This document shows positions 11,167 to 41,637 of a DNA stretch of 64,000 bases, piece after piece. The translations under genes and the position numbers were made by a program. Origin of the DNA: Lophium mytilinum (lineage: Eukaryota); the NCBI GenBank assembly GCA_010093605.1, contig MU004185.1:269334-333333 (forward strand). Direction: 5' to 3'. Within the stretch, counting starts at the first letter, position 1. The number at the start of each line of letters is the position of its first letter. The notes beneath the pieces are model-generated. The model worked only from the letters and a program-made list of their open reading frames with translations, searched no databases and was not told the origin of the DNA.

Positions 11167-13122
11167 TCATGCATCTCCTCGGCGGTATGTAGACCATCTC
11201 TTTATCATACCTGGTGACCTTCGAGCCTTCCCGCTGGGCCCAAGATCCGCCATTTTTCTGAACTTCCCCGAAATACATTCCTTCACTCTCTCCACGCCCT
11301 TTTCATAATCCGCTGCATCCCACCACCCCTGTCTATCAATGAAATCAGCCCCCGAAGAGATCATGAGAGCAGTCTCCGTCGTTCCTTCAGAAGATTTGAA
11401 CGACTCCAAGTTGACCAGCTGTGCCAACTCGCTAGACATACGCGCGCGGTCAAGCAAAAATCGTGCCGTGTCTTTATGTTCGCAGTCCGGAGTTCTCTCG
11501 CCCCATTTGCAAGACCTGCAGCAGTTGTTCGTCTCTGAGAAGGGTCGAATATGCAGCCGCTCCATCGAACTGGAGTCGAACGCGAAGTAGTTACAGGAAT
11601 TCCCGGTATAGTAGAGGCTTGAATTCGCCTCCATGTGGCAAAGAGCGGATTGTCCGACAGAGAGGTACTTTGTCACAACTAAAAAGAATGGATGCACTGC
11701 TGCCTTCTCGACCTTCGAACGCCAGAGCCCGAGGCAGATGCCGTGATGGGTGTGGTTGGGCAGAGCATACGGGAGGCGGCCACGGATGATCCGATTGAAG
11801 TCTTGGCCCTCGAAGGCGTACCATTCAGCATCGAGTGGGATGATATCGTCTGGGCCTCTGTTTGCGCCATCAAGTACAATGTCTTCTATCGGAGTGTCGC
11901 GGATGTATGTCCAAGCCCAGAGAGGAATTCGCGTCTCGCCGGTTTTGCAGGCACAGATAAGCTCCGCAAGCGTGATCTTTTTCGGTGCGCTATTTCGGAT
12001 CAACACAAACGGTGGTTCTGGGTATTCTTTAAACTCGGCGAGTTTCGAAGGGGAACCATCTTTGGGTGCGGAAAGCCAGTATACGGATCGGATGAGCGCT
12101 GCTACTGCTTGCAAGGCCAGCCAAAGCAGCGCCGACTGGTTTGTTGCGTCTCTTAGAATTGAGTACTGGCAGATGTACGCCACGACCAAACAAAGAGCGG
12201 CCAGAAGCGCAATGATCCTTGTCGGCCACCCGTGAAGGAAGAGGGACTTGCCTTGGGCATGCAGCACATCGCCATGCCCAAGCCGGCACTGCAGCAACTC
12301 CATTGTCCGGACATCCGACTTCCACGCACTTAGGGCGTCCCACACAGGAATGGTGAGGCAAGTTCCCGGCCGCTGCGTTTTCCAGGTATACAACAGCGGC
12401 ATCGCGAAAAGTACGAGTAGCGACGCGTGCATCCCAACCATAGCGTGAATACGGACCCAGCTCCACGATGTCTGGACCACAATCAGCAACCACGAAGTTA
12501 TACCGGTGCATAGTATCCCGAAGAGCAAATGTAGGCAGATGCTCTGACCCCAACTCCCTTCTTTCGTCGGATTTCCCAAGTTCAGCGCGGTGAAGCCTGT
12601 CAGCCTCAGCCCGCCCCGCCCTGTTTGATCTGTTCCATACCTCGAAGCGACATCCAGTAGCGGATTCGACTCAGCATTGAAGAATCGCTTCCACTTCTTG
12701 ATTACCAAATCCCCGCCCTTTCGCCCTTTCGCTTTTGGCGCCTGCCCCTCGAACTCGACGCGCACAACATCACACTCCAGTATCAGCGCATTCGACTCTG
12801 CCTCTAGCGCCGTGTATCCAAAGATTCCGCGTAGAGATTCTAACCCAAACCCAGCGGCTTGGCAGCGATCGTTTCCGAGCGCAATCTTGAGCGCCGATTT
12901 CACCATGCCCAGCATTCCGAGTAACGAAAGTTGGGAGATGGAGAGGTTGCCTAGCCCGAGATGTGTCGCGATGGCGTTCCGCTCGACGGAGCCGGAGAAG
13001 AGAAGTGCAGAGAGGGCGGCGATGTCTTGAGTGCCCGATGCCATGGATTGCGCGAGGGTGTCCTGAGGGACGCAGTCGGGAGCCGCAGCAGCAGCTGCGG
13101 CCGCGGGGAGGATGGAAGACAT
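11167..13122 (-). CDS. Uncharacterised multi-pass membrane protein (651 aa, apparently intronless)
   Basis: Long ORF with several hydrophobic stretches (LHLLFGILCTGITSWLLIVV, IIALLAALCLVVAYIC, ALLWLALQAVAALIR). No family recognised. Confidence 0.65.
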   Translation of the reverse strand: MSSILPAAAAAAAAPDCVPQDTLAQSMASGTQDIAALSALLFSGSVERNAIATHLGLGNLSISQLSLLGMLGMVKSALKIALGNDRCQAAGFGLESLRGIFGYTALEAESNALILECDVVRVEFEGQAPKAKGRKGGDLVIKKWKRFFNAESNPLLDVASRYGTDQTGRGGLRLTGFTALNLGNPTKEGSWGQSICLHLLFGILCTGITSWLLIVVQTSWSWVRIHAMVGMHASLLVLFAMPLLYTWKTQRPGTCLTIPVWDALSAWKSDVRTMELLQCRLGHGDVLHAQGKSLFLHGWPTRIIALLAALCLVVAYICQYSILRDATNQSALLWLALQAVAALIRSVYWLSAPKDGSPSKLAEFKEYPEPPFVLIRNSAPKKITLAELICACKTGETRIPLWAWTYIRDTPIEDIVLDGANRGPDDIIPLDAEWYAFEGQDFNRIIRGRLPYALPNHTHHGICLGLWRSKVEKAAVHPFFLVVTKYLSVGQSALCHMEANSSLYYTGNSCNYFAFDSSSMERLHIRPFSETNNCCRSCKWGERTPDCEHKDTARFLLDRARMSSELAQLVNLESFKSSEGTTETALMISSGADFIDRQGWWDAADYEKGVERVKECISGKFRKMADLGPSGKARRSPGMIKRWSTYRRGDA

Positions 13123-13461
13123 TTTTGGTAGATGTTCGATTGGTTCGAAGGGGGTTACAAAGATGTGAGTGAGACGTAGGCGGTAAGATCTCGAGGTAGG
13201 CAGCTGTGTTATATCTCAAAAGGCCGACGCATGATTCTCTCTCGGCCCCAGGGTAGGTGACTCCGCCACATGTTCACGTAGCGGAGCCATATCGTCGGAT
13301 TCTTCTTTGGGGTCCTTCCACGAGCTTGAGGCTGGGAGCGCCTTTACTTACGCTATAGAGAGGTGGTGTCAGCGGAACGTTCCTGGGCTTTTGCTACGCT
13401 CGGTAAGTGGGGGTGTCCAAAGGAAGCGTTGCGATAGGCTGCGCCACACGAGGCTGTGCAC

Positions 13462-14345: not shown

Positions 14346-15785
14346 TCAGTACTCCTCCTCCCACGCTCTCGACGCATCTTTCAACGCAAGCGGTAGGAGT
14401 CGGACTGGATCCACCGCCGCTTTCGGTGCTCTTGCTGCCAATCTCGCCGCTCGGTCTGCGCCTCGGTCTGCCGCTTGGTTGCCTTTTGCGCTCGAATGCC
14501 CATTCACCCAGCGAAGTGTGAGAGGCACCCCCATTGCGTGCAGCTGGTCGGCGGCGTCGTAGATGTCCTCGAGCGCCCACCGCGTCGACGTCAAGGGGCC
14601 TAAGTCGGTCGCTCTCCCGCTTTCAAGGGCAATAAGGCACGGAAGGAAGTCGGTGAAAATGACGACGGGTGCCCTCTTTCCAGCATATGCGTCGATAACG
14701 GCTAGGCCAAGCGCGGCGGCGATAGCGTAGACCTCGGCGTCGCCAGAAGAACCCACATTGCAGCCTATAGGGTACTCGGTCACGTCGAAAATGGTGGTTG
14801 TTGGGGCAAGACGCGCCACCGCAGCGCCCAGGAAAGAGTCGGTGCTATCAGGAGGGTGGTGGGCGGAGCCGTCTGTCCAGAAAGCGTTGTGGGTCCTATT
14901 ATGCGGCAATGCGTCCTCATATGTGATGGATGTTGCGACAGAAGCCCTGCGATCCTCGCGGACCACTTCGCCGGCGAAACTACGTTCTTTTCTGCCCTTT
15001 CTGCCCATTATGGCCTTGTGGAAGGCACTCATTCGGGCCCTGTGTGCGCTTCTGGCAGGTCCGGTCACTTTCCGAGAAGCACGCTTCTGGTCTTTGTGAG
15101 GGATCTCTGCACGCTTTGTGGGGGAGGCGGCGTGAAAGCCGGCTTGGTCTGCGTGTCGTCTTGCGAGTTTTAGCTCGCGGCGTTGCTTGTCGCGGCCTCT
15201 TTGGGCCTTCTTCTGGTCTTCGTCACGCGGGGTCGCCCTCGTCGCCTCTTCTCCGCGCGTTCGTCCACCAGGCGTGGGCGTGAAAAGCGGTAACAGCGGG
15301 TGAAGGACCGGAATAGGGGCGTTTTGGGCCGGATGTTGAGGAAGTTGGCGCCCGAGCGTATCGGGATGCGGAAGAAGAAGAGGCGGGAAGGTAAGAAGAG
15401 GGTGCGCGAGCGTGGTTGGATGTTGAGACAGAAGAGACGAGAAGGATGGGAGCGGTGCTTGTGTGACAAGAGATGGAAGAGGGTGAAGTTGAGCAGGAAG
15501 GGTCCGTGCGAACGACGACGAGAGGGTTGGGAATCCAGCGTGACCTACGGCGGCTGGTGAATTTTCCGCCAGCCTCTGAATCGGGGTGCTTGTGGGAGTC
15601 GGTGGGACGCCGAACGAGAATCCGGGCGCCGTCGCTGCGAAATTGACGGGCTTCTCGGCGACTCGAGCCAACCATGGCACCTTTGAGCTGTCCGTTGCGC
15701 CTCGCGCGTACTTCGCGAAGCCGACGAGAGAAGGCGCTGGGACGGCTGGTTCATCGGCGCCGGAGGGGTCTCTGTTGTCGTCCAT
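14346..15785 (-). CDS. Stand-alone RNase H (RNase HI-like) domain protein with a long low-complexity N-terminus; possibly truncated by a premature TGA
   Basis: FWTDGSA, DAEVYAIAAAL, IFTDF and WVNGHS..GNQAADRGA supply the D-E-D-H-D set. No reverse transcriptase ORF is adjacent. Confidence 0.75.
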   Translation of the reverse strand: MDDNRDPSGADEPAVPAPSLVGFAKYARGATDSSKVPWLARVAEKPVNFAATAPGFSFGVPPTPTSTPIQRLAENSPAAVGHAGFPTLSSSFARTLPAQLHPLPSLVTQAPLPSFSSLLSQHPTTLAHPLLTFPPLLLPHPDTLGRQLPQHPAQNAPIPVLHPLLPLFTPTPGGRTRGEEATRATPRDEDQKKAQRGRDKQRRELKLARRHADQAGFHAASPTKRAEIPHKDQKRASRKVTGPARSAHRARMSAFHKAIMGRKGRKERSFAGEVVREDRRASVATSITYEDALPHNRTHNAFWTDGSAHHPPDSTDSFLGAAVARLAPTTTIFDVTEYPIGCNVGSSGDAEVYAIAAALGLAVIDAYAGKRAPVVIFTDFLPCLIALESGRATDLGPLTSTRWALEDIYDAADQLHAMGVPLTLRWVNGHSSAKGNQAADRGADRAARLAARAPKAAVDPVRLLPLALKDASRAWEEEY

Positions 15786-16134
15786 CGTGGATTGTAGGTT
15801 GGTTGATGATTAGTGGTTGGAGAGTCAGTCTGCAGTAGGAGGAAGCTCAGACGGTGGCACGAAGGCTGCAAGACAATCGGCAACTGGTCACGATTGTAAT
15901 GCGAGCGCTGTCGAGGTTGGAGGTTGAAGGAGAAGTTGACGGTCGACGTCAATAGAAGAAAAGACACGTCCAAACTAGCGCCTTGGCGACAACACTCCCA
16001 CGTGCAGGTGAGGTGGAAGGGCTCGGTGAGGAGGAACAAGCTGCCGACGCCGGAAAATCAGTCCTTCCGAAGGCTAGATTTGTAGTCTTGTGATGCTGCG
16101 AGGTCTGGAAGCAGTAAATGGTGAAAGTTGTAAA

Positions 16135-17046
16135 GAGCACGCTTTGGCCGCATATAGTAACTTTTCTGTCATGAAAGGGGCACGTTTTGGGGGCTTTTAG
16201 TAATACTTTCGTAGTAGTAAGGCATATTCTAGCTACAAATTCGATTTTTTAGCACTAAGAGGGCACGCTTTCGGTACTAATAGTGCTACTTTCCACATAA
16301 GTAGGGCGCCCTTCGGGTACAAACAGTAGATCTTGTAACACCAATGCGTGGTATAAAATGCTACTTCTTCTCTTCTTATTAATATTTCTTCTTCTAGGAC
16401 CGAAAGCGTTACTTCTCCCTACTTGTAATATATTCGGCTTAAAGCAACTCTAAATTATCTTATATCTTAGGCTGCTTAAACCGCGCTACTTAGACGTTTA
16501 TTTTGCTAGGTTATATACCTATAGAAGACTCCCCACAAGGTACAAGACTTTTAGAAATGTGAATGTCACGTTCTAGACTCTTTAGATTAGGTCTCTAACA
16601 GGTAAATAGCTTTTAGACATGTCCGAAGGCTATGCACCTGCCAAAGACCTAATATAGGGTGTCCAGAACGTGACATTCACATTTTCCAAATTTGCAACGT
16701 CCAGGAGCGTCTGGAAGCGCTATCCAAACTGCCAAAATACGCGATCGAATGGCTCGATATTGTATGCGAGGGAAGTAAGACGTTAATTCTCTTACGTGCT
16801 AAATCAGGCTATGTTCGCGGATGTTTTGGAGGCTTTGATACCGCCTGAAGACACCCCTTGGCGTGGGACGTTTTAAAAATATGGATGTCACGTTCTAGAC
16901 ACCACAGATCAGAACCTTGCTTCTCGTGCGTGCGATATCAGGCTACGCGAACACCTGTTTTGGAGGCTTAGCTAGCGCTTGAAGACGCCCCTGGACGTTA
17001 CATATTTGAAAAATGTGAATGTCACGTTCTACACCCCGCAGATTAG
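16135..17046. repeat. AT-enriched composite repeat region with a ~135-bp unit (3 direct, 1 inverted copy) and short gggcacgcttt-type repeats; likely transposon relic
   Basis: aatgtgaatgtcacgttct-like core at ~16557, ~16880, ~17012 and inverted at ~16665-16684. (g/a)g(g/a)gcacg-ttt-like motifs at ~16135, 16177, 16260 and 16304. Confidence 0.8.
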
Positions 17047-18527
17047 AGAGATCCCTTCATGTTTTCGACTTCCCTCTGCTTCGTCTTCCCTTTTCTCTCC
17101 TCAAACATACTTCTCACAACCCTCCTCGACCTCTCGCACAGAATTTGGAAAAGGGAATCGTCGACATCATCCTCTCCCTCTCCTCCCAGCATTCCTAGTA
17201 CCCAAACCCCACAATCCTCTTCCAGTACCCCTCGCCGAAAGTTCACCGCATAGTCTCGATTGACGCTGACGGTGCCGTCTAAAATTGACGTCATGCCAGC
17301 GAAGAGAGCGCCGTAGTCGTGGCGTTTATACCCTGTGGCGGGTACCACAAGATCGAATGGTTTTTCACTCGTTTGCCCGTGGCAGGTGGTTGAGAGGATG
17401 ATTTTGCCACCCACATCGCGGCGTGCGGCAGTGACTGTAGTAGAAGAGAGGAAGCGTGTCGCGGAGTTCCGAAGCTTGTTCTGTTTCGAGGGGATACGCT
17501 GGTTATACTGGGCTGCATATAGCGAATCTAATAGTGGCGAAGAGGCGGTAGGGTAGGTTGTACTCTCGTGTAGCACACTTCCTCTGATTAACTCTGGTGG
17601 GTATAGGGGGTGGGAAGTTTGCAGCGTTGTTGTCGTGCTGTCATTTATTAGCACTTCCTTTCAATCACTTGCTTTTTCTCCATTCTTTGAAGCGACAGAG
17701 ATGTTGGGGTAAGGAAAAAGAAAAGAGGATACCCACAAAGCAGTGTCTTCATCCGCTCGAAAGTGTTGTTCTTCCATCAGAACCGTAACTCGATACCTCG
17801 GATTCTTTCCGTTCAAATACTCCACAACCTCAGCAGCGTGCTGCCCACCCCCCACAACCGCGATTTCCCGTCCCCTCCACCCATCTTTCTCTCTCTTCTC
17901 TAGCTCCTCTCGAAACTCCGCCGCGTGAACCACAGCCACCTTTAAACTCTTCGATTTTAGAATAGCTGGGAAAGCGAGCTCGACGCCCATCGCACACACC
18001 ACCTTTCTCGCTCTCCATTCCCTCAATTCCCCTTTCTCTCCCTCTCTTGCGAAGACTCTAAAAGCTTCAACCTCCCCACTCCTCCCTTTAGCAGCTTCTA
18101 CACCCAGGACCTCGCACCCGAATCTGACCTCCGCCCCATCGCGAATAAATTCCTCCCCACACCACCGCAGATACGCGCGCACGAGCTCTCTACTCGGCTG
18201 CACGCGTCCGAGATTGGTGTAGTCGACGAGGAGGTTACGAGTATATAGGAAGTTTACGAAGGTGTATTTTGAGCGGGGTTCATTGGAGGTTACGAGGTCT
18301 GAGATGAAAGATGTGCTCATATGCGCTGCGGGGAGAGAGGGGCCGGGCGACCATGCTTTTTGGGGGTGTGCCTCCAGGTAGAGGGTCTTTAGAGCACTTT
18401 GAGGAATTGTGGAAGCCAGGTTTGCGGCGAGAGAGAGGGCAGTGGTGCCAAACCCGATTGTGAGGATGTCGTAGACTGGCAATGAATGATCTGAAGAAAC
18501 AGTGGGGCTGAGTTCTGAGGAAATCAT
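17043..18527 (-). CDS. L-ornithine N5-monooxygenase (SidA)-like flavoprotein, highly divergent; intron ~17638-17736
   Basis: YDILTIGFG, SFISDLVT..PRSKYTFVNFL, TNLG..PSR, IAVVGGGQHAAE, ATGYKR and VSVNRDYAV follow the SidA/IucD layout. Splicing TT|C restores the frame (DTAF-TTT). Confidence 0.8.
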
Positions 18528-19215
18528 TGCTGCTGAACGGTGTGAGGGAGTCCCCTGAGTTCCTCGAAAGATTGACTTGAAGGGTGAGAGCCTATAGCTT
18601 TGGAAATGCTACCGAAATCAAAATCCCGACTACACGGTTGTGAAACAGATGGCGGCCTCTTTCTCGACCATCTTACCAAAGCCGTATTGATATTCCGAGA
18701 GCTCTCATTTCATCACTTACCTTAAAACCTGGTATTAGACCACCTCGCTGCACTCGTCTGATCCACTCGCCGAAAAGCGATATGCAACCCTGCAATATCA
18801 CATTCGCAGGCCGCCCGACCTCGGCGTCATACCCACTTCGCTGGGCTAGAGTATTACCCGCCACCACACGAACGACGACCCCATCTTTGAAGCCCAAAAT
18901 TTCCCAAACGATGATGCCAGGCCCCGAGGCGCAAGGGTGACGTAGCCGAGCAGCAGTCTTGCCCGCCAGGTGGGATACAGTACCCCCTTTTCGCGCCAAA
19001 TACATACAATACAGATATGATATTATCGGGCCCTTGCCGTCGTGCCCTGCTCGCAACCCTCCAGCTGGACCTGGTGCACGGGAAGATTCCCAGTAATACA
19101 GTTCAAACTCACTACGTAAAAGGGTGGGATAGTCGCTGGATCGTCACCCCTCTTCCCCAATTTCCGCTCGCATACGCATATCCCACGGCGCCAAGGTGAG
19201 ACTCTTGGGATTTTG

Positions 19216-19723
19216 ATCTGATAATTTTTCCCTGCACGCTGGGCAGGGATAGAGTTTACCGGGGGCGGACGTGGCGCGGCTGGGGCGCTGGGCGCTTTCT
19301 TAGGCGCCCGAGCTAAGGGCAGGTGGAGATGGGTCGGCGGATTCCGGGTGCGCCCCCATCTTATCTGATCCCCGCGGATCGGGAGAGTGAATGGAACTTG
19401 GTATTGTTCGGTGCCGTTGAGTCTAGCGGAGTCGATGGGGAAGGAGCAGCGATGATCGAACGATGTCATGATCTCGGTAGTAAGGAGATGACGGGATGGC
19501 TTCTTCTCCTGGGGAAAGGTTTTAGTATGGAGCTGGTTAGGGTGAATTGACCACCTGCGTGATGAAAGTTTCGCAGTTGCAGCAAAGAGCCGAGAGCACT
19601 GTTGTTCGGAAGACCTGGATGGGGAAGTCGACTAATTGGGGTCATGCAGCCCTGAGAATTCACTGCTGTAGTTTCATGTGCTAGGATCTGCTTAGATTTT
19701 GCAGCTTCTACATCTTATCAGAT
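19216..19723. promoter_or_regulatory. Three SreA/SRE-type GATA sites (ATCWGATAA) in the sidA-like/sidI divergent promoter
   Basis: atctgataa at 19216-19224; ttatctgat at 19361-19369 and ttatcagat at 19715-19723 (both ATCWGATAA on the minus strand). Confidence 0.8.
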
Positions 19724-19763
19724 TTCTCCTATCCACTCTATCAATCTATTCGCACCTTTCAAA

Positions 19764-21692
19764 ATGATATCTGAAGCTCCATCCACTGACCCCCAGCCCT
19801 TATCCTTTCTCACAGGTCCGACCGACCCACCCCTCCTCTCCCTAACACTCGCTTCCCTCCTCGACCTCCAGGCTCTTCGGTTTGCATCTTCTGAGTTCCT
19901 TGTCTTCCCATGGACAGGCGCAAGATGGAGTTTCGAAAGACTACGAGCGGAGAGTGTGGCTCTCGCAAAAGGATTAGTAGCTCTGGGAGTGCGGAGAGGT
20001 GATCGAGTTGGTGTCATGGCTGGGGACTGTGAGGAGTTCGTCGCCTTAGTGTTTGCGTGCGGACGAATAGGAGCTATTCTGGTGTTGTTTGGAATGGGAG
20101 GGAAGGAGGCAGAGGTTAGGGCTGGCTTGGAGTTTGTTGGTGAGTTGATGCGCTTGGATACTGCACGCTTGCGAGCAGGTGGATTAGGTTGAGATTTTGA
20201 ACTGGGCTGATAGGTGTATAGAATGCAAACTCTTTCTCACCACGCAAAGCATCGGGAAGCATATCGATAATACGGAACTGCTACAGCTACTGCATAATGA
20301 TCCTCCCAAGGGACTTGAGGAAGTGATATTGCTACGCGGTCGTCTGCAGCCATTCCGCGACTATGGCCTGTTAATAGATGCTGGATTGGATATTTCGCTG
20401 GAGAAGATACTGGAGCTGAGTGCACTTGTGAAACCGGAAGAAGTCTGTAACCTGCAATTCACGAGTGGGACAACCGGACGGCCGAAGGCAGCTATGTTGA
20501 CGCATTAGTGCGTATTCCCCTTTCTTTGCAGTGCTCATGTCTCGAACTACATCCAGCACTGTAAAGAAGCAAATCTTTGGAGATATCACTGACGTGTCCC
20601 AGCTGTGTGACCAACAATGCCCGCTTCATTGGATCCCGCATGGCTTTTACTCCCTCCGATACCCTCTGCTGCCCACCGCCGCTATTCCACTGCTTCGGGC
20701 TTGTGCTAGGCATGCTCGCTGCCCTCTCCCACGGCACCAAAATCGTCTACCCTTCAGAAGTCTTCGACCCCTCTGCTTGCGTTGCCGCGCTCATAGAAGA
20801 AGACTGCACAGCACTCCACGGTGTACCCGCAATGTTCGACGCCATCTTTGACGTCCTCCCCGAAGGTTTCGCAAGCGGACGTCTACGAACGGGGATTGTA
20901 GCTGGCGCGCCGGTGCCGCGGGCAATTGTAGAGGGACTACTAGGGACCTTGGGAATGCGTGAGTTCACGAGCAGTTATGGCTTGACTGAAGCGTCTCCGA
21001 CATGCTTCAATGCGTTCTACGACGACCCACTGGCTCACAGGCTCAATACTGTTGGCACGTTGATGCCGCACGCGAAGGCGAAGATTGTGGATCATGATGG
21101 GAAGACAGTCCCTGTTGGTGTGCGCGGAGAACTCTGCATTGCTGGGTATCAGCTACAAGCGGGTTATTGGCGCGATCCAGAGAAGACAGCAGAGACTATG
21201 ATGCTTGACGAGGAAGGTGCGGTATGGCTACGGACCGGTGACGAGGCTGTGTTTGATGGGAGCGGCGGATGCAAGATTACTGGTCGATTCAAGGACATTA
21301 TCATCCGAGGTACGATTCGTCCTTTGCCAGCGTTGTCGAGTACTGACACCAATTCAGGTGGCGAGAACATCTACCCCATCGAAATCGAGGAGCGACTAGC
21401 TGCCCACCCCGCCATCGCCCGTGCGGTAGTAGTCGGCCTCAAGCACCGCAAGTATGGCGAAGTCGTGACCGCATTCCTGCAAGCTAGGGATAACGAGCGG
21501 CCTTCCGATGAGGCAATCAAGGAGTGGACTTTGATGAAGCTTGGTCGGCACAAGGCTCCGGCGCATGTCTTCTGGTTCGGACACGACGGGGTCCCGATTG
21601 AGATTCCGCTGACAGGGAGTGGAAAGGTGAGAAAATTCGAAATTGCCCAGATGGGGGAAGCTTTACTGGCGCGGAGACGTCCCAAGCTGTAA
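19764..21692 (+). CDS. sidI: Acyl-CoA ligase (mevalonyl-CoA ligase SidI-like), about 3 introns, C-terminal -PKL
   Basis: LQFTSGTTGRPKAAMLTH, PPLFHCFGLV, SYGLTEASP, RTGD, GRFKDIIIRGGENIYP and TGSGKVRK; located in the siderophore cluster. Confidence 0.85.
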
Positions 21693-21964: not shown

Positions 21965-23401
21965 TCACAGCTTCGCAGGTAACCTAATACCCGTCCCACC
22001 AACCCATCCTCCCTGACTATCCAGTGGACAGAGCTGGAAAAACCTCTCCCGCCCACACCTCATGAATGCGCTCCGCTTATGTGGTAAATCCACAAATTTC
22101 TCGATGCTAAAGCCTGTCATGAGATCATACGCCAACACAGACGCATTCTCCAACTTCGGCTCACCCACGACGGCCATAGTCCGCGGATCGTCGAGGAACA
22201 GATAGTGGATCAGCGACGCCCACCAAGCCGTCGCCCGATGCCGACCCCGGAAATTTGCATTACCGACGAGTGAGTGCCGCCCACGATCGAAGTCGTGGGG
22301 TGTGTAGTGTGCACCTAGGTGATCCTCCTATTTCCACATTAGCTTACTATCCTCAATCGTCAATCCTCACATTAAGAGCCCGCCAATAGTAAAGTCAACA
22401 ACAGATAAAGAGTGTTAACATACCTTCACCCAATAAATCTCAAAATACGCAAAATAATTCTCCTCAAATCTCGCCAACACAGCCACCTGATGCTTATCCG
22501 CATCCATCTTCCTAAGATACTCCGTATGCTGCTCCACCGTCCCCTCCTCATTCCACCCAGCCGCGACCCGGGGATCGTTCTGCCACGTATGGAACAGGTT
22601 CACATGCTCGGCATCTCTATAATCCAGCGCCACCATGCTAAAGTTCTCGTCCAGATGCGGGATATATCTGCTATAGATCACGCTCCCGGGGGTGGGCTTG
22701 GCCGGGCGCCGAGGGTGCAGCGTGTGCACCCGCGTGGACGGGAAGAGGGTCGTGAGGGTGTAGGTGAGCGCGGCTTCGTTAGCGGAGAACCTCTGTCTTG
22801 AGCCATCGGCGGACGGTAGCCACGCGGAGCCAGCGCCGAAGGGGGCGCCCGCGCCTTGCCAGAAGGTAGCTCGCAGAAGTAGGAGCTCGTTGGTGGTTGG
22901 TTCTAGGGGCTCGTTGCGGAGGGGATCTTGCTCTGGGTGGGCAATACCAAGGGAGGTAGAGATTATTGCGCTGCTGAGAGCGCTGCTTGAGGGGCCATTG
23001 AGGGCGACGCGGACGCTTTCGAGCTCGGGGCGGAGGACGAAGATGGCGTAAGAGAGCAGCCAGAATTGAGCAGGGGTGGGGGCAACGCTGGAGCTCCAGG
23101 TTAGGTTTGTGGAAAGAGAGCGACGCGCGCGAGCCCAGGCGGAGTTATTCGACGAGGGAATTGCATCGGTGCCAGGTGTGGGCTGAAGAGGCGTGAAGTA
23201 GAGATCTGAGTTGTGCAATTGGAGTGGTGGGTCGGTCTCCTCTTTGCTCAGACCGTTTTTGGGAGAGCCTTTGCGGACTTGAAGCAATTGGGTGCCGCCG
23301 TCATGCTTCTCGGTTGCTGCGATGTGGTAGGTTGTGAGATATGGATGAGGAAGACAGAGCTTCGCCAGTACTGTCTTGTCTAGAATCTCAGGAGCTGTCA
23401 T
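21965..23401 (-). CDS. sidF: N5-hydroxyornithine acyltransferase (IucB/AlcB-type), 1 intron (~22329-22422), C-terminal -AKL
   Basis: [62 protein letters not shown] and DLPHKRSA. The probable ATG is at 23401. Confidence 0.9.
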
Positions 23402-23792
23402 TTTGAAGCTTGCTAGATAACTGGCGGTAGAATGTTGTGAAGATAGTAATGACAGTATTGGACGAAAGAGGAGCAAGGCCTGAAACCCCCAAACTACCTC
23501 CAACACTCACAGAAATTCTCGGTCAAGCTCGCCAAAGCTCAATCCATGGTGTCATCAGGGCGTACCCAACCCACCGGCAACAATTTCCTACCTCTAACCC
23601 ATACCGGCAGCCCGCCTCATCCGTCAGCCGTCCTTCGCTCACCTCCGCGTCTCCACCCAAGAAAAGCCACTGCGTAATTAGTTCTCGCCCTCGTATACAA
23701 CGGTCCCTCGGCAACCCTAAACAAATGGCGTGCTCCCAGGTATACTCCCAAGATCACCCCTCTCTTGGCCCCCTTCGCGTACAACGCAGATG

Positions 23793-24061
23793 ATCTGATA
23801 AAACGACCCTCCGCACCGACAAATTTATGGGGCTGTTAGCCCGGCGCTAGCGTCCTACCAGTCCCCGAGGCGCAAGGAATGTGCGGATCTGATAACTTTA
23901 TTCGCGCCCATCCCGCCCCCAGTCCACGCTTCGCACGCGCCCCGACATCGGCGCGCCAGGCCGCGGTTCCAATAAAGTTATCTGATCCGCTGCTTGATAC
24001 CTTGGTGCTGTTGCTAGCGTCGGAGAGTCCTCCGCGCGCGAGGTCAGCGTTTTTATCAGAT
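23793..24061. promoter_or_regulatory. Four SreA/SRE-type GATA sites upstream of sidF
   Basis: atctgataa at 23793-23801 and 23887-23895; ttatctgat at 23978-23986; ttatcagat at 24053-24061. Confidence 0.85.
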
Positions 24062-24886: not shown

Positions 24887-27800
24887 TCAGTCCATCATCT
24901 GATGCAGCGCATTGACTCTATAGCTTTGGCTTCTCTCAACCAAATCTTCATGCCTCCCCTGGTCTACTACCGTGCCGCCCTCCACCAAGAAGATGACATC
25001 AGCTTCACGGATAGTGTGCAGCCGATGTGCGATAGCAATGACGGTGATATCTCTAGCAGCTTTTTCGAGCCCATCTTGAAGGAGTTTTTCGCTCTCCGCA
25101 TCTAGCGCACTCGTGCTCTCGTCAAGCAGGAGTAGTTTCGGCCTCCGCACCAGCGCACGCGCAATTGCGAGACGCTGTCGTTGACCACCAGAGAGCTGGG
25201 AGCCATTCGGGCCACACTCGGTTTCGTAGCCATCGGACATTGAAACAATCGTGTTGTGGATATTCGCAAGCTTGCATGCTTCTTCGATCTCAGCGTCGGT
25301 AGCCTCGTGATCCGGGTGTGCGCCGAGAGAGACATTGAAGCGGACACTGCCCTCGAAGAGAACGCTGTCTTGTGGAACTAACGCCATCTGAGATCGGAAC
25401 TCGGTACCTTGTCGTTTCGAGATGTCGATACCGTCAACCTCGACAGCGCCAGCAGTGGGCGCGTACATGCGCTCAATGAGAGCCATGACCGTGGATTTTC
25501 CAGCGCCTGAAGGACCGACGAGGGCGCAGAATTGGCCGGGTTGGATCGTGAACGAGATTTCTTTGAGGATTTGAATGTCGGGACGCGCTGGATATGAGAA
25601 TGAGACATCTTTAAAGCTAACACTCACGCCATTCCTTGAGTTGGGCTTCTCTCTGGAGCTCGCAAAGGCTTCTACATCCTTTTCGCTCGGTTCCGGTAGA
25701 TCCGGGTCTTGACGCTTTGGTTCTAACGTTTTTGAAGAACCAATGTCAATGAGACCTACGATCCTCGACAAAGCAGATTGGGCGCGCGAAACGTCAGGTG
25801 CAAGTGCGAACATCTGACCCCATAGCTGTGCACTCACGAGCATAGCTAGGACGACGATGAAGAACTGAGTTTGGTTGTACTCTCCAGCGATGATCTGTTT
25901 TGCTCCCCACCAGTATGCGAGAGCGTAGATGAAGTTTCCACAACTATTCGCAATAGCGAGCCACAAATTGGCATATGCGCTCGCGGCAACCATCTCCTTC
26001 CGTGGAGTTTGTAGTGAACGACGATACGTAGCTAATATCTCGTCTTCGAGAGATAAAGCGGACACCATTTTGATGGAGTTGATAGCCTCTACTGCCATAC
26101 CAACGGATGTTGAGAATGCTGTCGCGTGACGCTCGTGATACTTGGATAGCACGCGAAGCTGCATCACTCCAGAGCCAAGCAAAATTGGAACAGTAGTAAG
26201 ACACACGATTGCAATCTTCCACGCTACAATGTGGCAGAGGATGATTGCGGCGAAGAGATTGACAACAATGGAGAAGATGGTGCCCATGATTGATCCAGTA
26301 AAGCCAGCGAGGTCGCTACTATCTCTCGTAATGTAAGATAGGAGCATAGTAGGATTTCTGTCCAGAGATTGATGCCATTGCAGATCTTGCTCGAAAAGTG
26401 ACCGGAAAGATAAAATGCGTAAGAAGTAGAGCAGCTTCTCAGCGACGAATCCAAATGCCGACCAGCTGATGAAGTTTGCAAAAAACTCGATGACTCCCAG
26501 CAAGAAGAAGAGTAGCGCAAAAAGCTGTCCACGAGACCGAATGCGATCCGGCTCATTGCAGGGGCTGAGACTAGCAACTGTGTTTCCAAAGATGACCCCG
26601 GACGCGGAGTAAGAACCCCCAACAACGATAGAAGTAGAGAAGGCGAGGATCAAAAGCAGAAGATATGGCCGGAATATCCAAGCTGAATGTTTGAAGGACC
26701 AAGATGATTTGGTAGACTCAGACTTAGGCTCATCCGTATCTTTCGATGGGATGTCTTTCTGTGCATTGCCTAGCTTTGAACCATCGCTCAGCTTGCTCTC
26801 AGAATGCTTGATGCCAGATACGACGTCGTCCTTCTCATTTGTGATGTCATCAATTGAGACGTCCGTAAGGCTCTGTTTGTAGGATGTGTCGCCTTGAGAC
26901 TTTGAACTACTCTGTAGATGTATCATGTTCGCAAACGATCCGCCCATTTGCATCAACTCGTCGTAGTTGCCTTGTTCGAGAATTTGACCCTTTCCCATCA
27001 CTATGATATTGTCGGCATTTTTTATCGTTGAGAGACGATGCGCAATTGATACCAGCGTCCTCCCGCGTGCGATTGATTCGATCGATGCTTGAATTCGCTT
27101 TTCGCTCATTGAATCAAGGGAAGAGGTGGCTTCGTCAAGAACGAGGACTTTAGGATCACGAATAAGTGCCTGTGCTAGTGCAAGTCGTTGCCTCTGCCCT
27201 CCACTGACTAAATCTCCACTAGAGCCAACGACTGTTCCAAGGCCATACTGCAGACGAGAAATGAACTCTGTCGCGTCCGCTAGGCTGATAGCTCGTTGTA
27301 CCGCGTCTACAATGCTGGCAATCTGTGCACCTTGCGTTTTCGCGGCCTCCATAACGTCTTCTCCATTTCTTACGGCGGCCGCAACATTGGAAAGTTGAGG
27401 TCCTTGGAGTATCGGCCTCAGTTGAACATGTTCAGCGGAGTTGATCAGGCCAAGCGCAATATTCTCCAAGATTGATCGGTCAAGAAGTAGTGGCTCTTGC
27501 TGAACAAGTCCAATCACACTCCTCAGACCTCGGACGTTGAGGGCAGAAATATCCTTCCCGTCCAGGATTACTTGCCCTTTCGTAGGGTCGTAGAGCCTGA
27601 CAAGCAAACTTGCAAGTGTAGACTTGCCGCTTCCAGATAAACCAACAATTGCTGTATGATTTCCTGCCGGACAGGTCAAAGAGATGTCCTGCAGGACCTC
27701 TTGCTCTGGCCGCGATGGATAGCTGAACGATACATTGCGGAACTCAACCTGGCCAGGCCCTGTCAGAGGCGGCTCGTTTCCCTGGTCTATGGTGCCATCA

Positions 27801-29002
27801 ATTGCTGATACATGTTCGATGTCTTTCCGGAGTTTCGAAAACGCAGCAGAGGCAGAGCCAAATATTTGAAGGAGCGGGGCGATTTGACTGAGTATGAGAG
27901 AAGCTGAGAGGTTAGCATGGCTGAACTGAGCATAAGGACACATGTTCTTACCATCAACGAGGATGAAAATGACGGTGTAGGTCTTCCCTACACTGGAGTT
28001 CTCATCGTTCGAAGCAACAGCATTTGCAATCGTTCTACTGCCCTGCCAATATGCGACGGCATTCGCTGAGTATGCGATGAAGTACAACATGCCAGATTGT
28101 GCAGCCGCAGCAAGGGCCTTCTTGATACCAGACTTCTGGGCACTCATAAGATTACCAGCAAACTTGCTCTCCAGACGCGCATTAGCTCCAAATGCGTGTA
28201 CGACATAGACATGCGATAGAGCCTCGGAAGCGATAGAGGCAGCGGACGCAGCGTAATTGGTCATCTGCGTGGAATACTTCCCAACGAACTTGCCACCAAC
28301 CAAGGACATGAGTAGGAAAGCTGGAACTAGGGAAACTAGAATGCCGGCTAATCTAGCATCCTTGATGAAGGCGACGATGTAGGCGGTGACGAAGAATGAG
28401 CAGCTGGCCATGCAGATGCCAACTTTCTCGGACGTTCCAGTCTGAATGATGGTAATATCGCCATTCAAGCGGGATGATACTTCGCCAGCTTGGAGGTTGT
28501 CGAAGAAAGAAACCTGTTGCCGTAGTAGACTTTTGAAGTACTTTTCGCGGATCCGCTGGGCAAGTCGCTGGCCGATCAGACTCCAGGACAAAATGTAGAT
28601 GTAAATAGCAGCAAAGCCACCTATACTAATGTAGACGACTTGTAACACCTTGTCGTTGACAGCAGATTGATAGGCATCTGCGTCACCAATGCCTGCACTA
28701 CACGTCGCGGAGTTCAAATCATCGACTAATTGACCAAACAAGATGCCCATGAGGGGAAAGGGCACACCTGCTGCAATGGCTGAAATCCCGCCTACCGCTA
28801 GGAGAAGGATGTCTAGCCATGTCGGCTCAGCGTATACGAGGAGTTGGAGATAGCTGGAAAAATTCCGGAATGCCTTGAGTCACGGTTCAGGAGCAGTTCC
28901 ATGGGTTTATCAATAGATTGCATAACTGACCTGAAAGTGACCCTTCTTCTCCAACGGTTGGTGAGCTTCAGCGTCTGGGGTGGTCGAGGACGCGTCTGCC
29001 AT
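24887..29002 (-). CDS. ABCB/MDR-type full ABC transporter (SitT-like siderophore exporter candidate); introns ~28874-28930 and 27904-27951
   Basis: TMD-NBD-TMD-NBD layout with GLSGSGKST / GPSGAGKST, VSGGQRQR / LSGGQRQR and LDEATS / LDESTS. Upstream exon MADASSTTP...GHFQ splices in frame to AFRNFSSYLQLL. Confidence 0.92.
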
Positions 29003-29780: not shown

Positions 29781-31631
29781 ATGCCTTCTCCCTTCGAGAA
29801 GGACACCGTCGCTGGTGATGGAGGCGCCAGCATCCACTCCCAGGGCCATTCGAATGCCAACAGTTCTAATGACAACAGCGATACCGAAGCCCTCTCGGCT
29901 GACGCCCAGCATGGTGTACAGGCTGCACAAGCTACCAACCAAGTCTGGAGCAAGAGTAGCTTGATCACGGCCTACCTGCTGTAAGTTGAGGAATAAGACA
30001 GATTGTGGAAGTTTCTCTAACATGTTTCTCAGCATCTGGCTGATCGCATTCGTCGATGCTATGCAGCAAGGCATGGCCAACGCCTTGACTCCGTATGTAA
30101 CGAGTGACTTTGCTCTGCACTCCTTGACCGCGACCACCGGTATCATGTCCAGTCTTATTGGGGGGCTGTCGAAGCTCACCCTTGCCAAAATTTTGGACAT
30201 TTTTGGTCGTCCTCAAGGTTTCCTCTTCATGGTCGTTCTCCTGACTCTGGGCCTCATCATGATGGCTGCCTGCAACAATGTTGAGACTTATGCTGCCGCT
30301 CAAGTGTTCTACTGGGTTGGGTATGTTAACCACCACGTCCACTCATGGCACTTGCCTAATCCTGCTGTAGTTACAACGGGCTCAACTTCACCACTGGAAT
30401 CTTCGTTGCCGATACCTCACATCTCAAGAACCGAGCTTTTATGTTTGCCTTCATTTCATCACCGTACATCGCTACCACTTGGATTGGCGGACCACTCGCC
30501 ACTGCTTTCTTGAAAGGACCTGGTTTCAGATGGGGCTTCGGCGTTTTCGCTATCGTCACCCCCATAGTCTGCATGCCCCTCTACTTCCTGTTCGCCTGGA
30601 ATTACGGCAAAGCCAAGAGGGCCGGCCTGGTACCCAAAACGGAAACAGGCAGGACTTTTTTCCAGTCTTTGAAATACTACCTCATTCAGTTCGACGCCAT
30701 GGGACTTCTTCTCATCACTGGAGGTCTAGCGCTTTTCCTCCTACCATTCAGTCTCTACTCGTACCAGAGAGATGGCTGGAGGTCTGCACTGGTCATCTCC
30801 ATGATCATAGTTGGCGGCCTTCTCATTATTGCCTTCGCTCTTTACGAGAAGTTTCTGGCGCCCGTCAAATTCATGCCTTTCGAATTGATGATGGACCGCA
30901 CTGTTCTCGGCGCTTGCATACTTTCCGCCACCATCTTCGTCAGCTTCTACGTCTGGGACAGCTACTTCTCCTCCTTCCTCCAAGTCGTCAACAACCTTTC
31001 AGTCACAGAAGCCAGCTATGTCGTCAACATCTACAGCATCGGATCATGCTTCTTCTCCCTGATAGTGGGTGTGGTCATCAGATGGACCGGCAAATTCAAG
31101 TGGCTTGCGCTCTACTTTGGCGTCCCGTTGACCATCCTTGGTGTGGCCCTCATGATTGCTTTCCGTCAGCCAGACGTCAACATCGGATACATCGTCATGT
31201 GCCAGATCTTCATCGCTTTCGCCGGTGGAACATTGGTCATCTGCGAGCAAATCGCCGTCATGGCTGCTGGCTCTCATCAACAAGTTGCCGTTCTCCTCGC
31301 TGTGGAAGGTATGTTCGCAAACGTCGGTGGCGCTATCGGCTCCACTGTCGCTGCAGCTATCTGGACTGGTGTTTTCCCAGTCAAGCTACTCAAGCACCTG
31401 CCAGAGGACGCCAAGGGCGATGTTGTGTCCATTTATTCGAGCATTGTCACTCAGCTATCCTACCCAGTCGGCTCTCCCGTCCGAACCGCAATCCAACAGG
31501 CTTACGGTGAAGCGCAAAGATACATGCTGATTGGCGGATCTACGGTATTGGTGCTCTCAATCGTCTCGGTCATAGTCTGGAGAGACATCCAAGTGAAAGA
31601 CTTCAAGCAAGTGAAGGGTCTGGTCGTCTAG
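29781..31631 (+). CDS. Siderophore-iron transporter (MFS, SIT family; MirB/Sit1-like), 2 introns
   Basis: AQHGVQAAQA..VWSKSSLITAY, LTPYVTSDF, LAKILDIFGRPQG, YAAAQVFYWVG, ADTSHLKNR and IQQAYGEAQRYM; about 14 predicted TM segments. Confidence 0.92.
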
Positions 31632-31856: not shown

Positions 31857-32561
31857 TCACTGCTTACACCACTCCTCCCACCCGATCTCCAAACTCTTCG
31901 GCATCCTCACCATCAACGGCACCTCCACATCCTCCGCCTCCCCCACCAACTCCCCCCGATGCCTCACCCGTCCCACCTCCTCAAACCCCAGGCTCCTATA
32001 CAACCCCTCTCCCTCCACCGAACTCTCCAAATACACCGGCAGCCCCGCCTGCTCGCCAACCTCAATCCCCCACTGCATCAGCTTCCTCCCAATACCTCGC
32101 TTCTGATATTCAGGATGCACGGCGACTACATGACAATAGACATGCCGCTTCCCCCCAAAAAACCCTTCTTTCTTCCGCACCATCTCCCCCAGCAACTCCT
32201 CCGCCCGCTCCCTCTCCTTCCCTGCTAACCACTCCACCCCCTTCCACTTCCACTCCTCCTCAGTCCGTTCGGTGAGATGAATATCCCATAGCCCCATCCC
32301 GACGACCTCTCCGCTTGCCACATCGACGGCTTTGAAGGTGTACTGAAAGCCAGAGGCGGGGGAAGCGAGCCAGGCGAGCGTGTGGGCAGTGTGGGATTCG
32401 CGGAATTCGGCGGTGGGGACGGTGTCTGAGGCGGTGGGGTAGGCGGAGGGGAATAGGAGCCGGGGGAGGGCGGAGCCGGCGAAGGCGAGGAAGTAGATGT
32501 CGTAGACTTTTGGGGTGTCGGCGGGTTGGGCGGGAAGGACGAGGTGGGCGGAGGGTGGCAT
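31857..32561 (-). CDS. GNAT N-acetyltransferase (candidate SidG-like N2-acetylase)
   Basis: VAVHPEYQKRGIGRKL acetyl-CoA motif and VYLESS..GEGLYRSLGF; divergent from the NRPS. Confidence 0.85.
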   Translation of the reverse strand: MPPSAHLVLPAQPADTPKVYDIYFLAFAGSALPRLLFPSAYPTASDTVPTAEFRESHTAHTLAWLASPASGFQYTFKAVDVASGEVVGMGLWDIHLTERTEEEWKWKGVEWLAGKERERAEELLGEMVRKKEGFFGGKRHVYCHVVAVHPEYQKRGIGRKLMQWGIEVGEQAGLPVYLESSVEGEGLYRSLGFEEVGRVRHRGELVGEAEDVEVPLMVRMPKSLEIGWEEWCKQ

Positions 32562-32991
32562 GGTGGATATGAGGGTTGGATTTGAAGGTATAAGCTAGAG
32601 TGGGAGAGGAAGTGTGGTTCGGAGTAGATCCCGTGAGTAAAAAACCAGGCGTTGATGAGAATTGAGCTCAGAGATTGAGATAGCTATGCAAAACGAGGAT
32701 GGACGTTTCAAGACCGAAATATGCCGGGATTGAAGTGAAGAAAATCGCGTTCGGCGCGTGAGAATGGCCGGAAGCTTGCAAATGGCGTGCAAAGCGTCCA
32801 GACTACTACATTCTCCGATCGGCATCATTCATCCCACATACGTGAAAAGTTACGTTGCATCTTACTGGAATCCGAAACACCGTATATGTCCCCGATCTCG
32901 GCCGCCCCCTCTCACCACCAAAGACCCACATAGCCCACACTGCTGATGACATGGGTGGCACCGCTCCACGTCCGGCAGGAGGAGACTTCGG

Positions 32992-33000
32992 ATCAGATAA
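32992..33000 (+). promoter_or_regulatory. SreA/SRE-type GATA site in the GNAT/NRPS divergent promoter
   Basis: atcagataa at 32992-33000. Confidence 0.7.
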
Positions 33001-41240: not shown

Positions 41241-41637
41241 GTTGGGGACTGGCTAGCGGACTTATTGACTAGGAGAGGGTGGTTTGAGAAGCATTGATAG
41301 AGTCGTGATGATGGATGATGAAAGGAGAGAGCTTGAAGCTTGAGCTCGGGGATTTGATGACGCTGGAAACGCGGGGGATCTGCGCCGGGTTTGGAGGAAC
41401 CCTTAAGAGCTCATTAGTCTTTAGTTTATATCATTTTACTGCCTACAGCTTAATTGAAAGTCAGTAGAATCTCTGATCGCTATCAAACATCACGCCAACA
41501 GGGCTTTCGGGTTTCCAGTTCAGGACATCCGAAGAAACCGCCGAATCCACGTCATCAAATCGCTCAGAGACTTTCTTCTGTTAAGCTTGAAGCTGAGCAA
41601 TAACATAGACATTTGATATAAGTCAGTAACAGAAGTC

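Follow-up and report, generated by a model that had tools for sequence, protein, structure and literature searches.

Lophium mytilinum carries, within its extracellular-siderophore cluster, a second, expressed copy of SidA, the gateway enzyme to hydroxamate siderophores in fungi and one that has been proposed as a drug target. Because every residue that holds ornithine in SidA has been lost from this copy, it probably does a different job from ornithine hydroxylation. The gene occupies 17043-18527 on the minus strand of the window, the 64,000-nucleotide stretch of contig MU004185.1 that was analysed, and its two exons encode a 461-residue member of the Lys/Orn N-monooxygenase family. The best overall explanation, to which a probability of roughly 0.45 is given, is that the protein may be an iron-regulated, NADH-preferring flavoenzyme of the NPS6 pathway with a substrate other than free L-ornithine.

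With sidD-, sidF- and sidI-like genes in the cluster (Table 1) and another sidA elsewhere, the locus has what has been called the 'sidA2' arrangement. The motif ATCWGATAA, given as a consensus in the available text of PMC10382037, occurs at eight sites in the window against 1.0 expected, a count reached in 0 of 100 shuffles, and all eight fall in promoters of the siderophore cluster. The sequence-only reading had counted three of them in the promoter held in common with sidI, and all three were located there; four lie between the sidF-like and ABC transporter genes (23793-24061) and one lies upstream of the NRPS gene.

Table 1. Features of the SidA-like gene and the surrounding siderophore cluster, in window coordinates.
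Feature	Position	Strand	Remarks
Local repeat array	16549-17047		134-nt units, 42-nt motif, inverted arms; adjoins 3' end of SidA-like gene
Spliced contig over SidA-like gene	16756-19205	minus	run X1
SidA-like gene, exon 2	17043-17637	minus	stop TAA 17043-17045; codes AFTTTTL, STTYP, ATGY, NFRRG, DSLFQIL; PF13434 25.2 bits
SidA-like gene, intron	17638-17736	minus	99 nt, GT..AG, in-frame length with one TGA stop; absent from RNA contig
SidA-like gene, exon 1	17737-18527	minus	ATG 18525-18527; codes GFGTTA (FAD motif), WSPGP, MSTSFISDL, GGGQHAAE (NAD(P)H motif), LMEE; PF13434 175.8 bits
Divergent promoter region, SidA-like/sidI-like genes	18528-19763		ATCWGATAA (extended SreA-type GATA) at 19216-19224, 19361-19369, 19715-19723
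sidI-like AMP-binding acyl-CoA ligase gene	19764-21692	plus	PF00501, PF13193; divergent; first in-frame ATG 19764
sidF-like N-acyltransferase gene	21968-23506	minus	PF13523 split across two exons
ABC transporter gene of cluster	24887-28879	minus	domain annotation
MFS transporter gene	30360-31631	plus	domain annotation
GNAT acetyltransferase gene	31857-32594	minus	sidG-like by position
NRPS gene, NPS6/sidD-like	33457-39381	plus	A, C and T domains; one ATCWGATAA upstream at 32992

Evidence of expression comes from run X1, a public run cited by code. Its RNA label is a guess only, and it is treated as RNA because two GT..AG introns are missing from its contigs. One is the 82-nt first intron of the sidI-like gene (joint 20138 to 20221). 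The other belongs to the SidA-like gene, and it is spliced out in RNA, since a contig connects 17637 to 17737 and omits 99 nt whose ends read CT..AC on the plus strand. The contigs are strandless, may be fused transcripts and have ends that are not mapped transcript ends, and the one over the SidA-like gene reaches about 287 nt beyond the stop codon and 678 nt ahead of the ATG. The SidA-like gene is transcribed and correctly spliced, and its neighbour is found spliced in the same run. The spliced product is identical at every letter to a database protein of L. mytilinum (P0002), in agreement with the earlier description of an intact, spliceable SidA-fold frame.

The 3' end of the gene merges into the repeat array, whose 23-nt core is present in four copies, all within 16556-17034. 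The last repeat copy contains the stop codon, and homology to the ortholog from Mytilinidion stops at 17055. About 13 C-terminal residues of that ortholog are absent from the Lophium copy, and tblastn found no remnant of them in the whole window. The array took the place of the 3' end and provides the stop codon.

Both exons pass the curated PF13434 cut-off of 21.3, and UniRef names the protein L-ornithine N(5)-monooxygenase. In the AlphaFold model (pLDDT 89.7, pTM 0.88) the three-domain SidA fold is retained, the best Foldseek matches being SidA, KtzI and PvdA (TM 0.77-0.80; SidA chains 0.79-0.80). Both dinucleotide motifs are kept, GFGTTA for FAD (25-30; G25-x-G27-x-x-A30) and GGGQHA for NAD(P)H (226-231; G226-x-G228-x-x-A231), as are ATGY (T365, G366) and the FAD-ribose Glu (E52). 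The protein retains 14 of 15 positions that are invariant across 89 canonical sequences and 42 of 63 that are at least 85% conserved, of which canonical members keep 48-63 (median 60).

The active site presents a different picture. Substitutions were read from HMMER alignments to SidA chain 4B63 and to PvdA and from a 120-sequence MAFFT alignment; identity to Aspergillus fumigatus SidA is about 27-29%. All of the replacements listed in the sequence-only reading reappear in these alignments (GFGP to GFGT, WHSGM to WSPGP, MQISFIKDL to MSTSFISDL, IMRD to LMEE, PFVNEIF to AFTTTTL, TNYS to TTYP and DSLLSVL to DSLFQIL), and the substrate residues are replaced, not retained. In the alignment to A. 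fumigatus SidA none of the four ornithine contacts survives: K107S, N293T, N323T and S469Q correspond to S76, T266, T291 and Q428 of the window protein. The full tetrad is present in 77 of 101 canonical rows as against 0 of 19 in the clade to which the window protein belongs. Arg279, the residue for the 2'-phosphate of NADPH, has become Glu-Glu (E252-E253; R279E), and Arg or Lys occupies this or the neighbouring column in 80 of 101 canonical rows and in 3 of 19 clade rows. A further change, S257H (GSGQSAAE to GGGQHAAE; H230), is added here to the earlier list; Ser is found in 97 of 101 canonical rows, as is the Gln at position 102, now Ser (S71). The Pro after the FAD motif is Thr (P49T; Pro in 100 of 101), and H91S and M94P complete the series. 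Since the replaced columns are 89-99% conserved among the 101 canonical family rows, these substitutions are not a matter of chance. Gln102 had been taken for an ornithine-binding residue, but the available text of PMC7359926 places it in the NADPH-FAD interaction and not in ornithine contact; Ser257 and Gln102 are both given NADP+-positioning roles in SidA (PMC7347517, PMC7359926, in the text available).

A working SidA was expected elsewhere in the genome, and a protein search by name returned one. P0185, named from L. mytilinum, has 533 residues, is encoded on a different contig, possesses every canonical residue and falls in the canonical SidA clade as a true ortholog. The window protein has an intact ortholog of its own in Mytilinidion, with 358 of 460 residues identical (78%, compared with 90% for the canonical SidA pair), and for this reason the gene is regarded as constrained and not decaying. 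Its rate of evolution is roughly 2-4 times that of canonical SidA, with 22% vs. 10% differences and branch lengths of 0.15/0.14 vs. 0.033/0.046.

With DesB/DfoA as outgroup, the window protein lies in a separate fungal clade (support 100), with canonical fungal SidA as its sister group. The clade, here labelled SidA2-type after the name of the cluster-linked second copy in Cladophialophora, was defined from the best 150 of 1123 matches in a full HMMER scan, with lower-scoring members outside this view. The clade takes in Dothideomycetes, Chaetothyriales and Phaeomoniella, and full-length members are found in two fungal classes. Its members occur alongside canonical SidA within the same species, and in the subclade of the window protein include the Chaetothyriales Exophiala viscosa and Lithohypha guttulata. 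Both GxGxxG/A motifs are kept in seven of nine subclade members, the window protein and its Mytilinidion ortholog among them. Across the clade the second Gly of the NAD(P)H motif is lost in 16 of 22 rows, among them every row from the two other subclades, and that of the FAD motif in 5 of 22, while Glu stands at the Ser257 position in 12 of 22. With the Gly lost and this Glu in place, at least part of the clade has abandoned the usual mode of NAD(P)H binding. No new conserved set has taken over at the former active-site positions, whose columns vary both in the clade as a whole and inside the subclade, where the K107 column shows S, S, C, N, S, N, D, S. Such a pattern is what would be expected of a pocket no longer in use and under relaxed constraint. 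Two word-indexed protein searches, one from the window protein and one from the clade alignment, gave eight matches each, and the ESM Atlas returned generic family clusters only. A metagenome scan with a three-sequence alignment found no relative, and one with the single protein P0004 found two loci only (L001 and L002, 28-31% identical), which were not used.

Incapacity for ornithine hydroxylation is consistent with published mutagenesis. In SidA, the K107A variant has no hydroxylation activity, and ornithine binds more weakly to N293A, N323A and S469A (PMC7347517, available text), so the window protein is presumably not the cell's ornithine N5-hydroxylase. SsDesB, a diamine hydroxylase without the same four residues, does not hydroxylate L-ornithine (PMC8009421, available text). 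In the favoured explanation, the canonical SidA on the other contig would supply N5-hydroxyornithine, and the window protein would act as an iron-regulated flavoenzyme of the NPS6, or extracellular siderophore, pathway that prefers NADH. The acidic E252 and E253, which close the second Rossmann strand, fit the use of NADH, which is the coenzyme preferred by the R279E variant of SidA (PMC7347517, available text). The substrate would most likely have no free alpha-carboxylate, and could be some other amine or an ornithine unit that is N-blocked or has already been assembled. SsDesB offers a precedent for activity without the tetrad (PMC8009421, available text), and the DfoA-type row P0009 has K107S, N293L and S469G. 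For an acylated substrate the precedent is MbtG, whose listed substrates are lysine or acyl-lysine (Table 1 of PMC7347517, in the text available). Efficient oxygenation is doubtful because Ser257, Gln102 and Asn323, which in SidA position NADP+ or stabilise the hydroperoxyflavin, are gone. With the NADP+-positioning residues missing, electrons might alternatively be passed to an acceptor instead of oxygen.

A substantial minority view is that the whole SidA2-type clade gave up amine N-hydroxylation, to become either a non-catalytic partner in NPS6-type siderophore synthesis or a flavin reductase that uses NADH to release iron from coprogen-type ferri-siderophores. The first form, the main rival, is somewhat unlikely: a SidA-derived pseudoenzyme, without catalytic activity but retained because it plays some structural or regulatory part in the making of extracellular siderophores. 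It might, for instance, partner SidA, which is a tetramer, or some other enzyme of the pathway. Loss of cofactor-handling residues that P0009 keeps (P49, H91, Q102, S257, R279), together with the substrate contacts, would suit a pseudoenzyme, as would the variable pocket and the partial loss of the second Gly of both motifs in a clade whose fold and core residues are meanwhile conserved. On the other hand, most of the subclade keeps both motifs, the window protein retains E52 and ATGY, and the His at the Ser257 position could still touch a pyrophosphate. Of the two marks of a pseudoenzyme, loss of the cofactor-binding motifs is seen in other clade members and not in the window protein; loss of catalytic and substrate residues with the fold kept is seen here, and alone cannot separate a pseudoenzyme from a changed activity.

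The second form, a non-oxygenating NADH:acceptor flavin reductase such as a ferric-siderophore reductase releasing iron from coprogen-type siderophores, is improbable. No fungal enzyme is known to free iron from coprogen-type ferri-siderophores. The protein keeps the FAD and NAD(H) motifs but not the residues by which NADP+ is fixed above the flavin and the hydroperoxide stabilised, and the GATA sites indicate regulation together with the siderophore genes; moreover, the R279E and R279A variants of SidA are strongly uncoupled (PMC7347517, available text). Against this, the proposal is inferential throughout, no homolog of that activity turned up, no metal-chelate binding site is suggested by the sequence, and pocket residues vary within the clade.

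It is highly unlikely that the gene encodes a working, cluster-dedicated L-ornithine N5-hydroxylase redundant with canonical SidA. The UniRef name, the listing of cluster-linked copies as ornithine monooxygenase (PMC10382037, PMC5274520, in the text available) and a position suited to dedicated precursor supply would agree with this, but no ornithine contact is kept, where K107A alone abolishes hydroxylation (PMC7347517, available text) and SsDesB without the tetrad rejects ornithine (PMC8009421, available text); the tetrad is likewise missing throughout the clade, and the window protein lies outside canonical fungal SidA. A decaying pseudogene with its frame still open is scarcely credible: faster evolution and a 3' end replaced by repeats that supply the stop codon speak for it, but the frame is intact and precisely spliced, the ortholog is intact, full-length members span two classes, and 14 of 15 core positions remain. 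Simple decay, which the sequence-only reading had named as the outcome opposed to its own, is excluded by the splicing, the intact 78%-identical ortholog and the deep clade of intact relatives.

In many Dothideomycetes and Chaetothyriales, members of the SidA2-type clade carry the automatic name L-ornithine N5-monooxygenase. If the clade cannot hydroxylate ornithine, published pathway reconstructions carry a misannotation, and in many black yeasts and Dothideomycetes an unassigned iron-regulated flavoprotein step or partner would form part of the NPS6/sidD pathway. The clade may also be seen as a natural experiment, in which a class B monooxygenase fold has lost its substrate contacts, NADPH selectivity and NADP+-positioning residues with its core still under selection. 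An unpublished remark describes a Cochliobolus heterostrophus sidA mutant as lacking all siderophores (PMC4290682). Literature searches found no report of a divergent sidA paralog, no biochemical or genetic data for any member of the clade, no paper on SidA Q102A or M101A variants, and no account of the dispensable second SIDA in Dothideomycetes that the sequence-only reading had mentioned; the available text of PMC7046739, PMC13462969, PMC5844311 and a SidF preprint added nothing on the second copy.

The literature already describes a second sidA within sidD/NPS6 clusters, as an ornithine monooxygenase (PMC10382037, PMC5274520, in the text available). In Cladophialophora carrionii (sidA2, CLCR_02414), C. 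bantiana and Corynespora cassiicola (UM591_921), as here, a second SidA-family gene is found in a sidD/NPS6-sidF-sidI cluster, and another sidA adjoins sidC/NPS2; the available text of these two papers treats the second copy as an ornithine monooxygenase and gives no residue or expression analysis. These three copies likely belong to the clade of the window protein. A. fumigatus SidA (PDB 4B63, 6X0H and others) shares with it PF13434, the three-domain fold, the GxGxxG/A motifs, ATGY and a siderophore-pathway gene under GATA sites, but in the window protein K107, N293, N323, S469, R279, S257, Q102, H91, M94 and P49 are all replaced, and it belongs to a separate clade. DesB and DfoA (PDB 6XBB, 5O8P) also lack equivalents of K107, N293, N323 and S469 and do not hydroxylate ornithine (PMC8009421, available text), and P0009 has Ser at the K107 column, as in the window protein. 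However, these proven NADPH-dependent hydroxylases, which are not closely related to it, keep P49, H91, Q102, S257 and R279. SidA R279E has Glu at the 2'-phosphate position, as here; R279E and R279A are engineered single mutants and strongly uncoupled (PMC7347517, available text), whereas in the window protein the change arose naturally, has become fixed in both genera and comes together with many others. The bacterial MbtG, a mycobactin lysine/acyl-lysine N6-hydroxylase, is listed with an acylated, late-stage substrate (PMC7347517, available text).

The product of the SidA-like gene was aligned by HMMER with Aspergillus fumigatus SidA (chain 4B63, the source of the SidA residue numbers) and PvdA, and placed in a 120-sequence alignment; all agree, and every motif change listed in the sequence-only reading is real. 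The replacements, with the fraction of the 101 canonical rows of the 120-sequence alignment that carry the SidA residue, are P49 to T28 (100/101), Q102 to S71 (97/101), S257 to H230 (97/101), H91 to S60 (95/101), and, at the ornithine-contacting tetrad, K107 to S76 (95/101), N293 to T266, N323 to T291 and S469 to Q428 (90/101 each). M94 has become P63, and R279-D280 has become E252-E253. The protein still has its dinucleotide motifs, GFGTTA for FAD and GGGQHA for NAD(P)H, together with ATGY, the FAD-ribose Glu and 14 of the 15 positions invariant among 89 canonical sequences. At positions at least 85% conserved the protein keeps just 42 of 63; canonical members keep 48–63 (median 60). AlphaFold, given a 111-sequence alignment, models the protein with confidence (pLDDT 89.7, pTM 0.88); the structures most similar to this model are SidA chains (TM 0.79–0.80), followed by KtzI and PvdA. 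Since the core motifs, invariant positions and fold are kept, the losses are concentrated where substrate and NADP(H) are handled. The window protein has the SidA fold but not the residues that contact ornithine and the NADPH phosphate.

The gene is conserved and intact, and its transcript is spliced. The gene product is the same as the 461-aa P0002, a database entry assigned to Lophium mytilinum (Dothideomycetes, Mytilinidiales). Both exons match PF13434, the Pfam family of Lys/Orn N-monooxygenases (175.8 and 25.2 bits; cut-off 21.3). Contigs of the public sequencing run X1 span 16756–19205 and join 17637 straight to 17737, with the predicted intron exactly gone; an 82-nt GT..AG intron in the divergent sidI-like neighbor is likewise absent. 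These two clean removals indicate that X1, whose RNA label is a guess and whose contigs carry no strand, level or true ends, contains spliced RNA, and hence that the gene is transcribed and processed as modelled. One spliced contig reaches 678 nt 5′ of the ATG (18528–19205), stopping 11 nt before the GATA site at 19216; this stretch may be an extended 5′ leader, or the contig may fuse two transcripts.

Gene model and ATCWGATAA sites, in window coordinates
Feature	Position	Strand	Detail
SidA-like gene	17043-18527	minus	two exons, 461-aa product
Exon 1	17737-18527	minus	gene model
Intron	17638-17736	minus	99 nt, GT..AG
Exon 2	17043-17637	minus	stop TAA at 17043-17045
ATCWGATAA, 3 sites	19216-19723		promoter common to SidA-like and sidI-like genes
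ATCWGATAA, 4 sites	23793-24061		between sidF-like and ABC transporter genes
ATCWGATAA, 1 site	32992-33000		upstream of NRPS

Scanned in full with HMMER, 1.84 billion representative sequences yielded 1123 matches, and a SidA2-type clade was defined from the best 150 of these. Among those 150, 19 of the 120 matches of 380–560 aa lack the canonical motifs, and in a FastTree tree of 75 rows the 19 form one split (support 100). A quick IQ-TREE tree of 56 rows, with DfoA-type diamine hydroxylases as the outgroup, recovers the same split (support 100); there the clade and fungal canonical SidA (17 rows so labelled, 12 named fungal and 5 guessed) are sisters (support 87) and together form one group (support 95). 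The window protein belongs to a distinct fungal clade, whose placement as sister may be an artefact of the long branch of a fast-evolving offshoot. Named members include the Dothideomycetes Lophium, Mytilinidion, Rhizodiscina, Venturia, Tothia, Microthyrium, Pseudovirgaria, Lecanosticta, Neodothiora, Aureobasidium, Zalaria, Elsinoe and Sphaceloma, and, from Chaetothyriales/Phaeomoniellales, Exophiala viscosa, Lithohypha guttulata and Phaeomoniella; most are automatically named ornithine monooxygenase. Again among the best 150 of 1123, the full K/N/N/S tetrad is present in 77/101 canonical rows vs. 0/19 clade rows, and a basic residue at 279/280 in 80/101 vs. 3/19.

The Mytilinidion ortholog, P0003, is intact, is identical to the window protein at 358/460 residues (78%), and shares its substitutions at 12 of 14 columns tabulated from the 120-sequence alignment. 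The canonical SidAs of Lophium and Mytilinidion are identical at 477/532 (90%), and IQ-TREE terminal branches are 0.15/0.14 for the window-type pair vs. 0.033/0.046 for the canonical pair. By these measures the window copy evolves 2–4 times faster than canonical SidA, yet is clearly conserved. The K107 column of the 19 clade rows holds R (6), Q (5), S (4), N (2), C (1) and D (1), and varies inside the gene's own subclade too; no new conserved set has settled in the old active-site columns. In alignment A4, 6/22 clade rows, every one in the window protein's subclade, keep the second Gly in the NAD(P)H motif; 12/22 have Glu in the Ser257 column, and 5/22 lack the second Gly in the FAD motif. Two of the three subclades combine the loss of that NAD(P)H-motif Gly with Glu in place of Ser257, and some Elsinoe and Sphaceloma members are also without the FAD-motif Gly. 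Judged by their motifs, these proteins seem more remote from catalysis than the window protein does.

The 3′ end adjoins a repeat array at 16549–17047 (134-nt tandem units, inverted 131-nt arms), whose 23-nt core has four copies there and none elsewhere in the window; the last repeat copy contains the stop codon. Genome and RNA contig are colinear across this region. Homology with the Mytilinidion ortholog ends at 17055, and that protein runs 13 residues longer, to -ARL, the Lophium protein ending ...MKGSL. Ends in ARL, AVL, ATL, AQL, AML or SML are common among clade members (alignment A1), and similar ones occur in some canonical SidAs (Histoplasma -ARL, Aspergillus -AML). The clade ends resemble a peroxisomal PTS1 tripeptide; such an end has been lost from the Lophium copy.

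The gene is divergent from a sidI-like acyl-CoA ligase gene, and farther along the cluster are a sidF-like PF13523 acyltransferase, an ABC transporter, an MFS transporter, a GNAT and an NPS6/sidD-like NRPS. At 15800–41500, the Pfam matches for the 22 large ORFs and for 15 of the 45 small ones include no sidH-like enoyl-CoA hydratase domain. ATCWGATAA occurs 8 times in the 64-kb window (1.0 expected; 8 reached in 0/100 shuffles), always in siderophore-cluster promoters, and the three sites that the sequence-only reading placed in the promoter common with sidI are present. As this motif is quoted as the extended SreA consensus (PMC10382037), the cluster and its SidA-like gene would be regulated by iron. 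Just past the NRPS is a divergent pair at 39960–42753, UPF0261 (PF06792/PF23189) and PEP-hydrolase-like (PF09370). Two long minus-strand open frames, 14346–15809 (487 aa) and 11167–13215 (682 aa), lie between the cluster and an aldehyde dehydrogenase gene and have no Pfam match at 1e-5; an NLR-like gene at 58316–61258 has a SesA N-terminal domain, NACHT/NPHP3_N and DUF7791.

A working SidA had been expected elsewhere in the genome, and a search with P0029, a canonical Dothideomycete SidA, found P0185, a 533-aa L. mytilinum protein named L-ornithine 5-monooxygenase, on a 2.72-Mb contig, separate from the 2.44-Mb contig of the window protein. It has the motifs GFGP, WHAGM, MQISFIKDM, GSGQSAAE, PFVNEIF, TNYG and LSDTLLS, has Lys at the R279 position, and is just 29% identical to the window protein. 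Both types are named in seven species: L. mytilinum, Mytilinidion resinicola, Rhizodiscina lignyota, Phaeomoniella chlamydospora, Pseudovirgaria hyperparasitica, Elsinoe fawcettii and Aureobasidium melanogenum. Cladophialophora carrionii is described as having two ornithine monooxygenase genes, sidA1 adjoining sidC and sidA2 inside a sidD-sidF-sidH-sidI cluster, and the same arrangement is reported for C. bantiana; in C. carrionii expression was measured for sidA1 only, and no SidD-branch siderophore was found, according to the text available (PMC10382037). The NPS6 cluster of Corynespora cassiicola contains a sidA, UM591_921, besides another at NPS2 (PMC5274520). The available portions of these two papers make no comment on residues of the second sidA. 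Searches of open-access papers turned up nothing on a divergent active site in a second SidA or on a dispensable second SIDA in Dothideomycetes.

According to a review, SidA loses hydroxylation with K107A and binds ornithine less well with N293A, S469A or N323A; S257 has the role of positioning NADP+, R279 that of binding the 2′-phosphate, and the R279E variant prefers NADH and is uncoupled (PMC7347517). Because of this mutagenesis, the window protein would not be expected to hydroxylate ornithine; its motifs make continued FAD binding and a preference for NADH probable. We tentatively favor a flavoenzyme of changed activity, at a probability of roughly 0.45. The variable old active-site columns and the motif losses across the clade fit a disused pocket and keep alive the idea of a pseudoenzyme, which we consider rather unlikely; against it, both dinucleotide motifs are retained by the window protein and 6/8 other members of its subclade. 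A reductase that does not oxygenate is improbable, an ornithine hydroxylase redundant with the canonical one is more doubtful still, and a decaying pseudogene can hardly be entertained.

The changed-activity flavoenzyme proposed here has precedents for its missing ornithine contacts. SsDesB, without equivalents of K107, N293, N323 and S469, does not hydroxylate L-ornithine (PMC8009421). In DfoA-type enzymes the tetrad is replaced too, P0009 having K107S, N293L and S469G. These enzymes differ from the fungal clade in keeping P49, H91, Q102, S257 and R279, the loss of which in the clade counts in favor of a pseudoenzyme.
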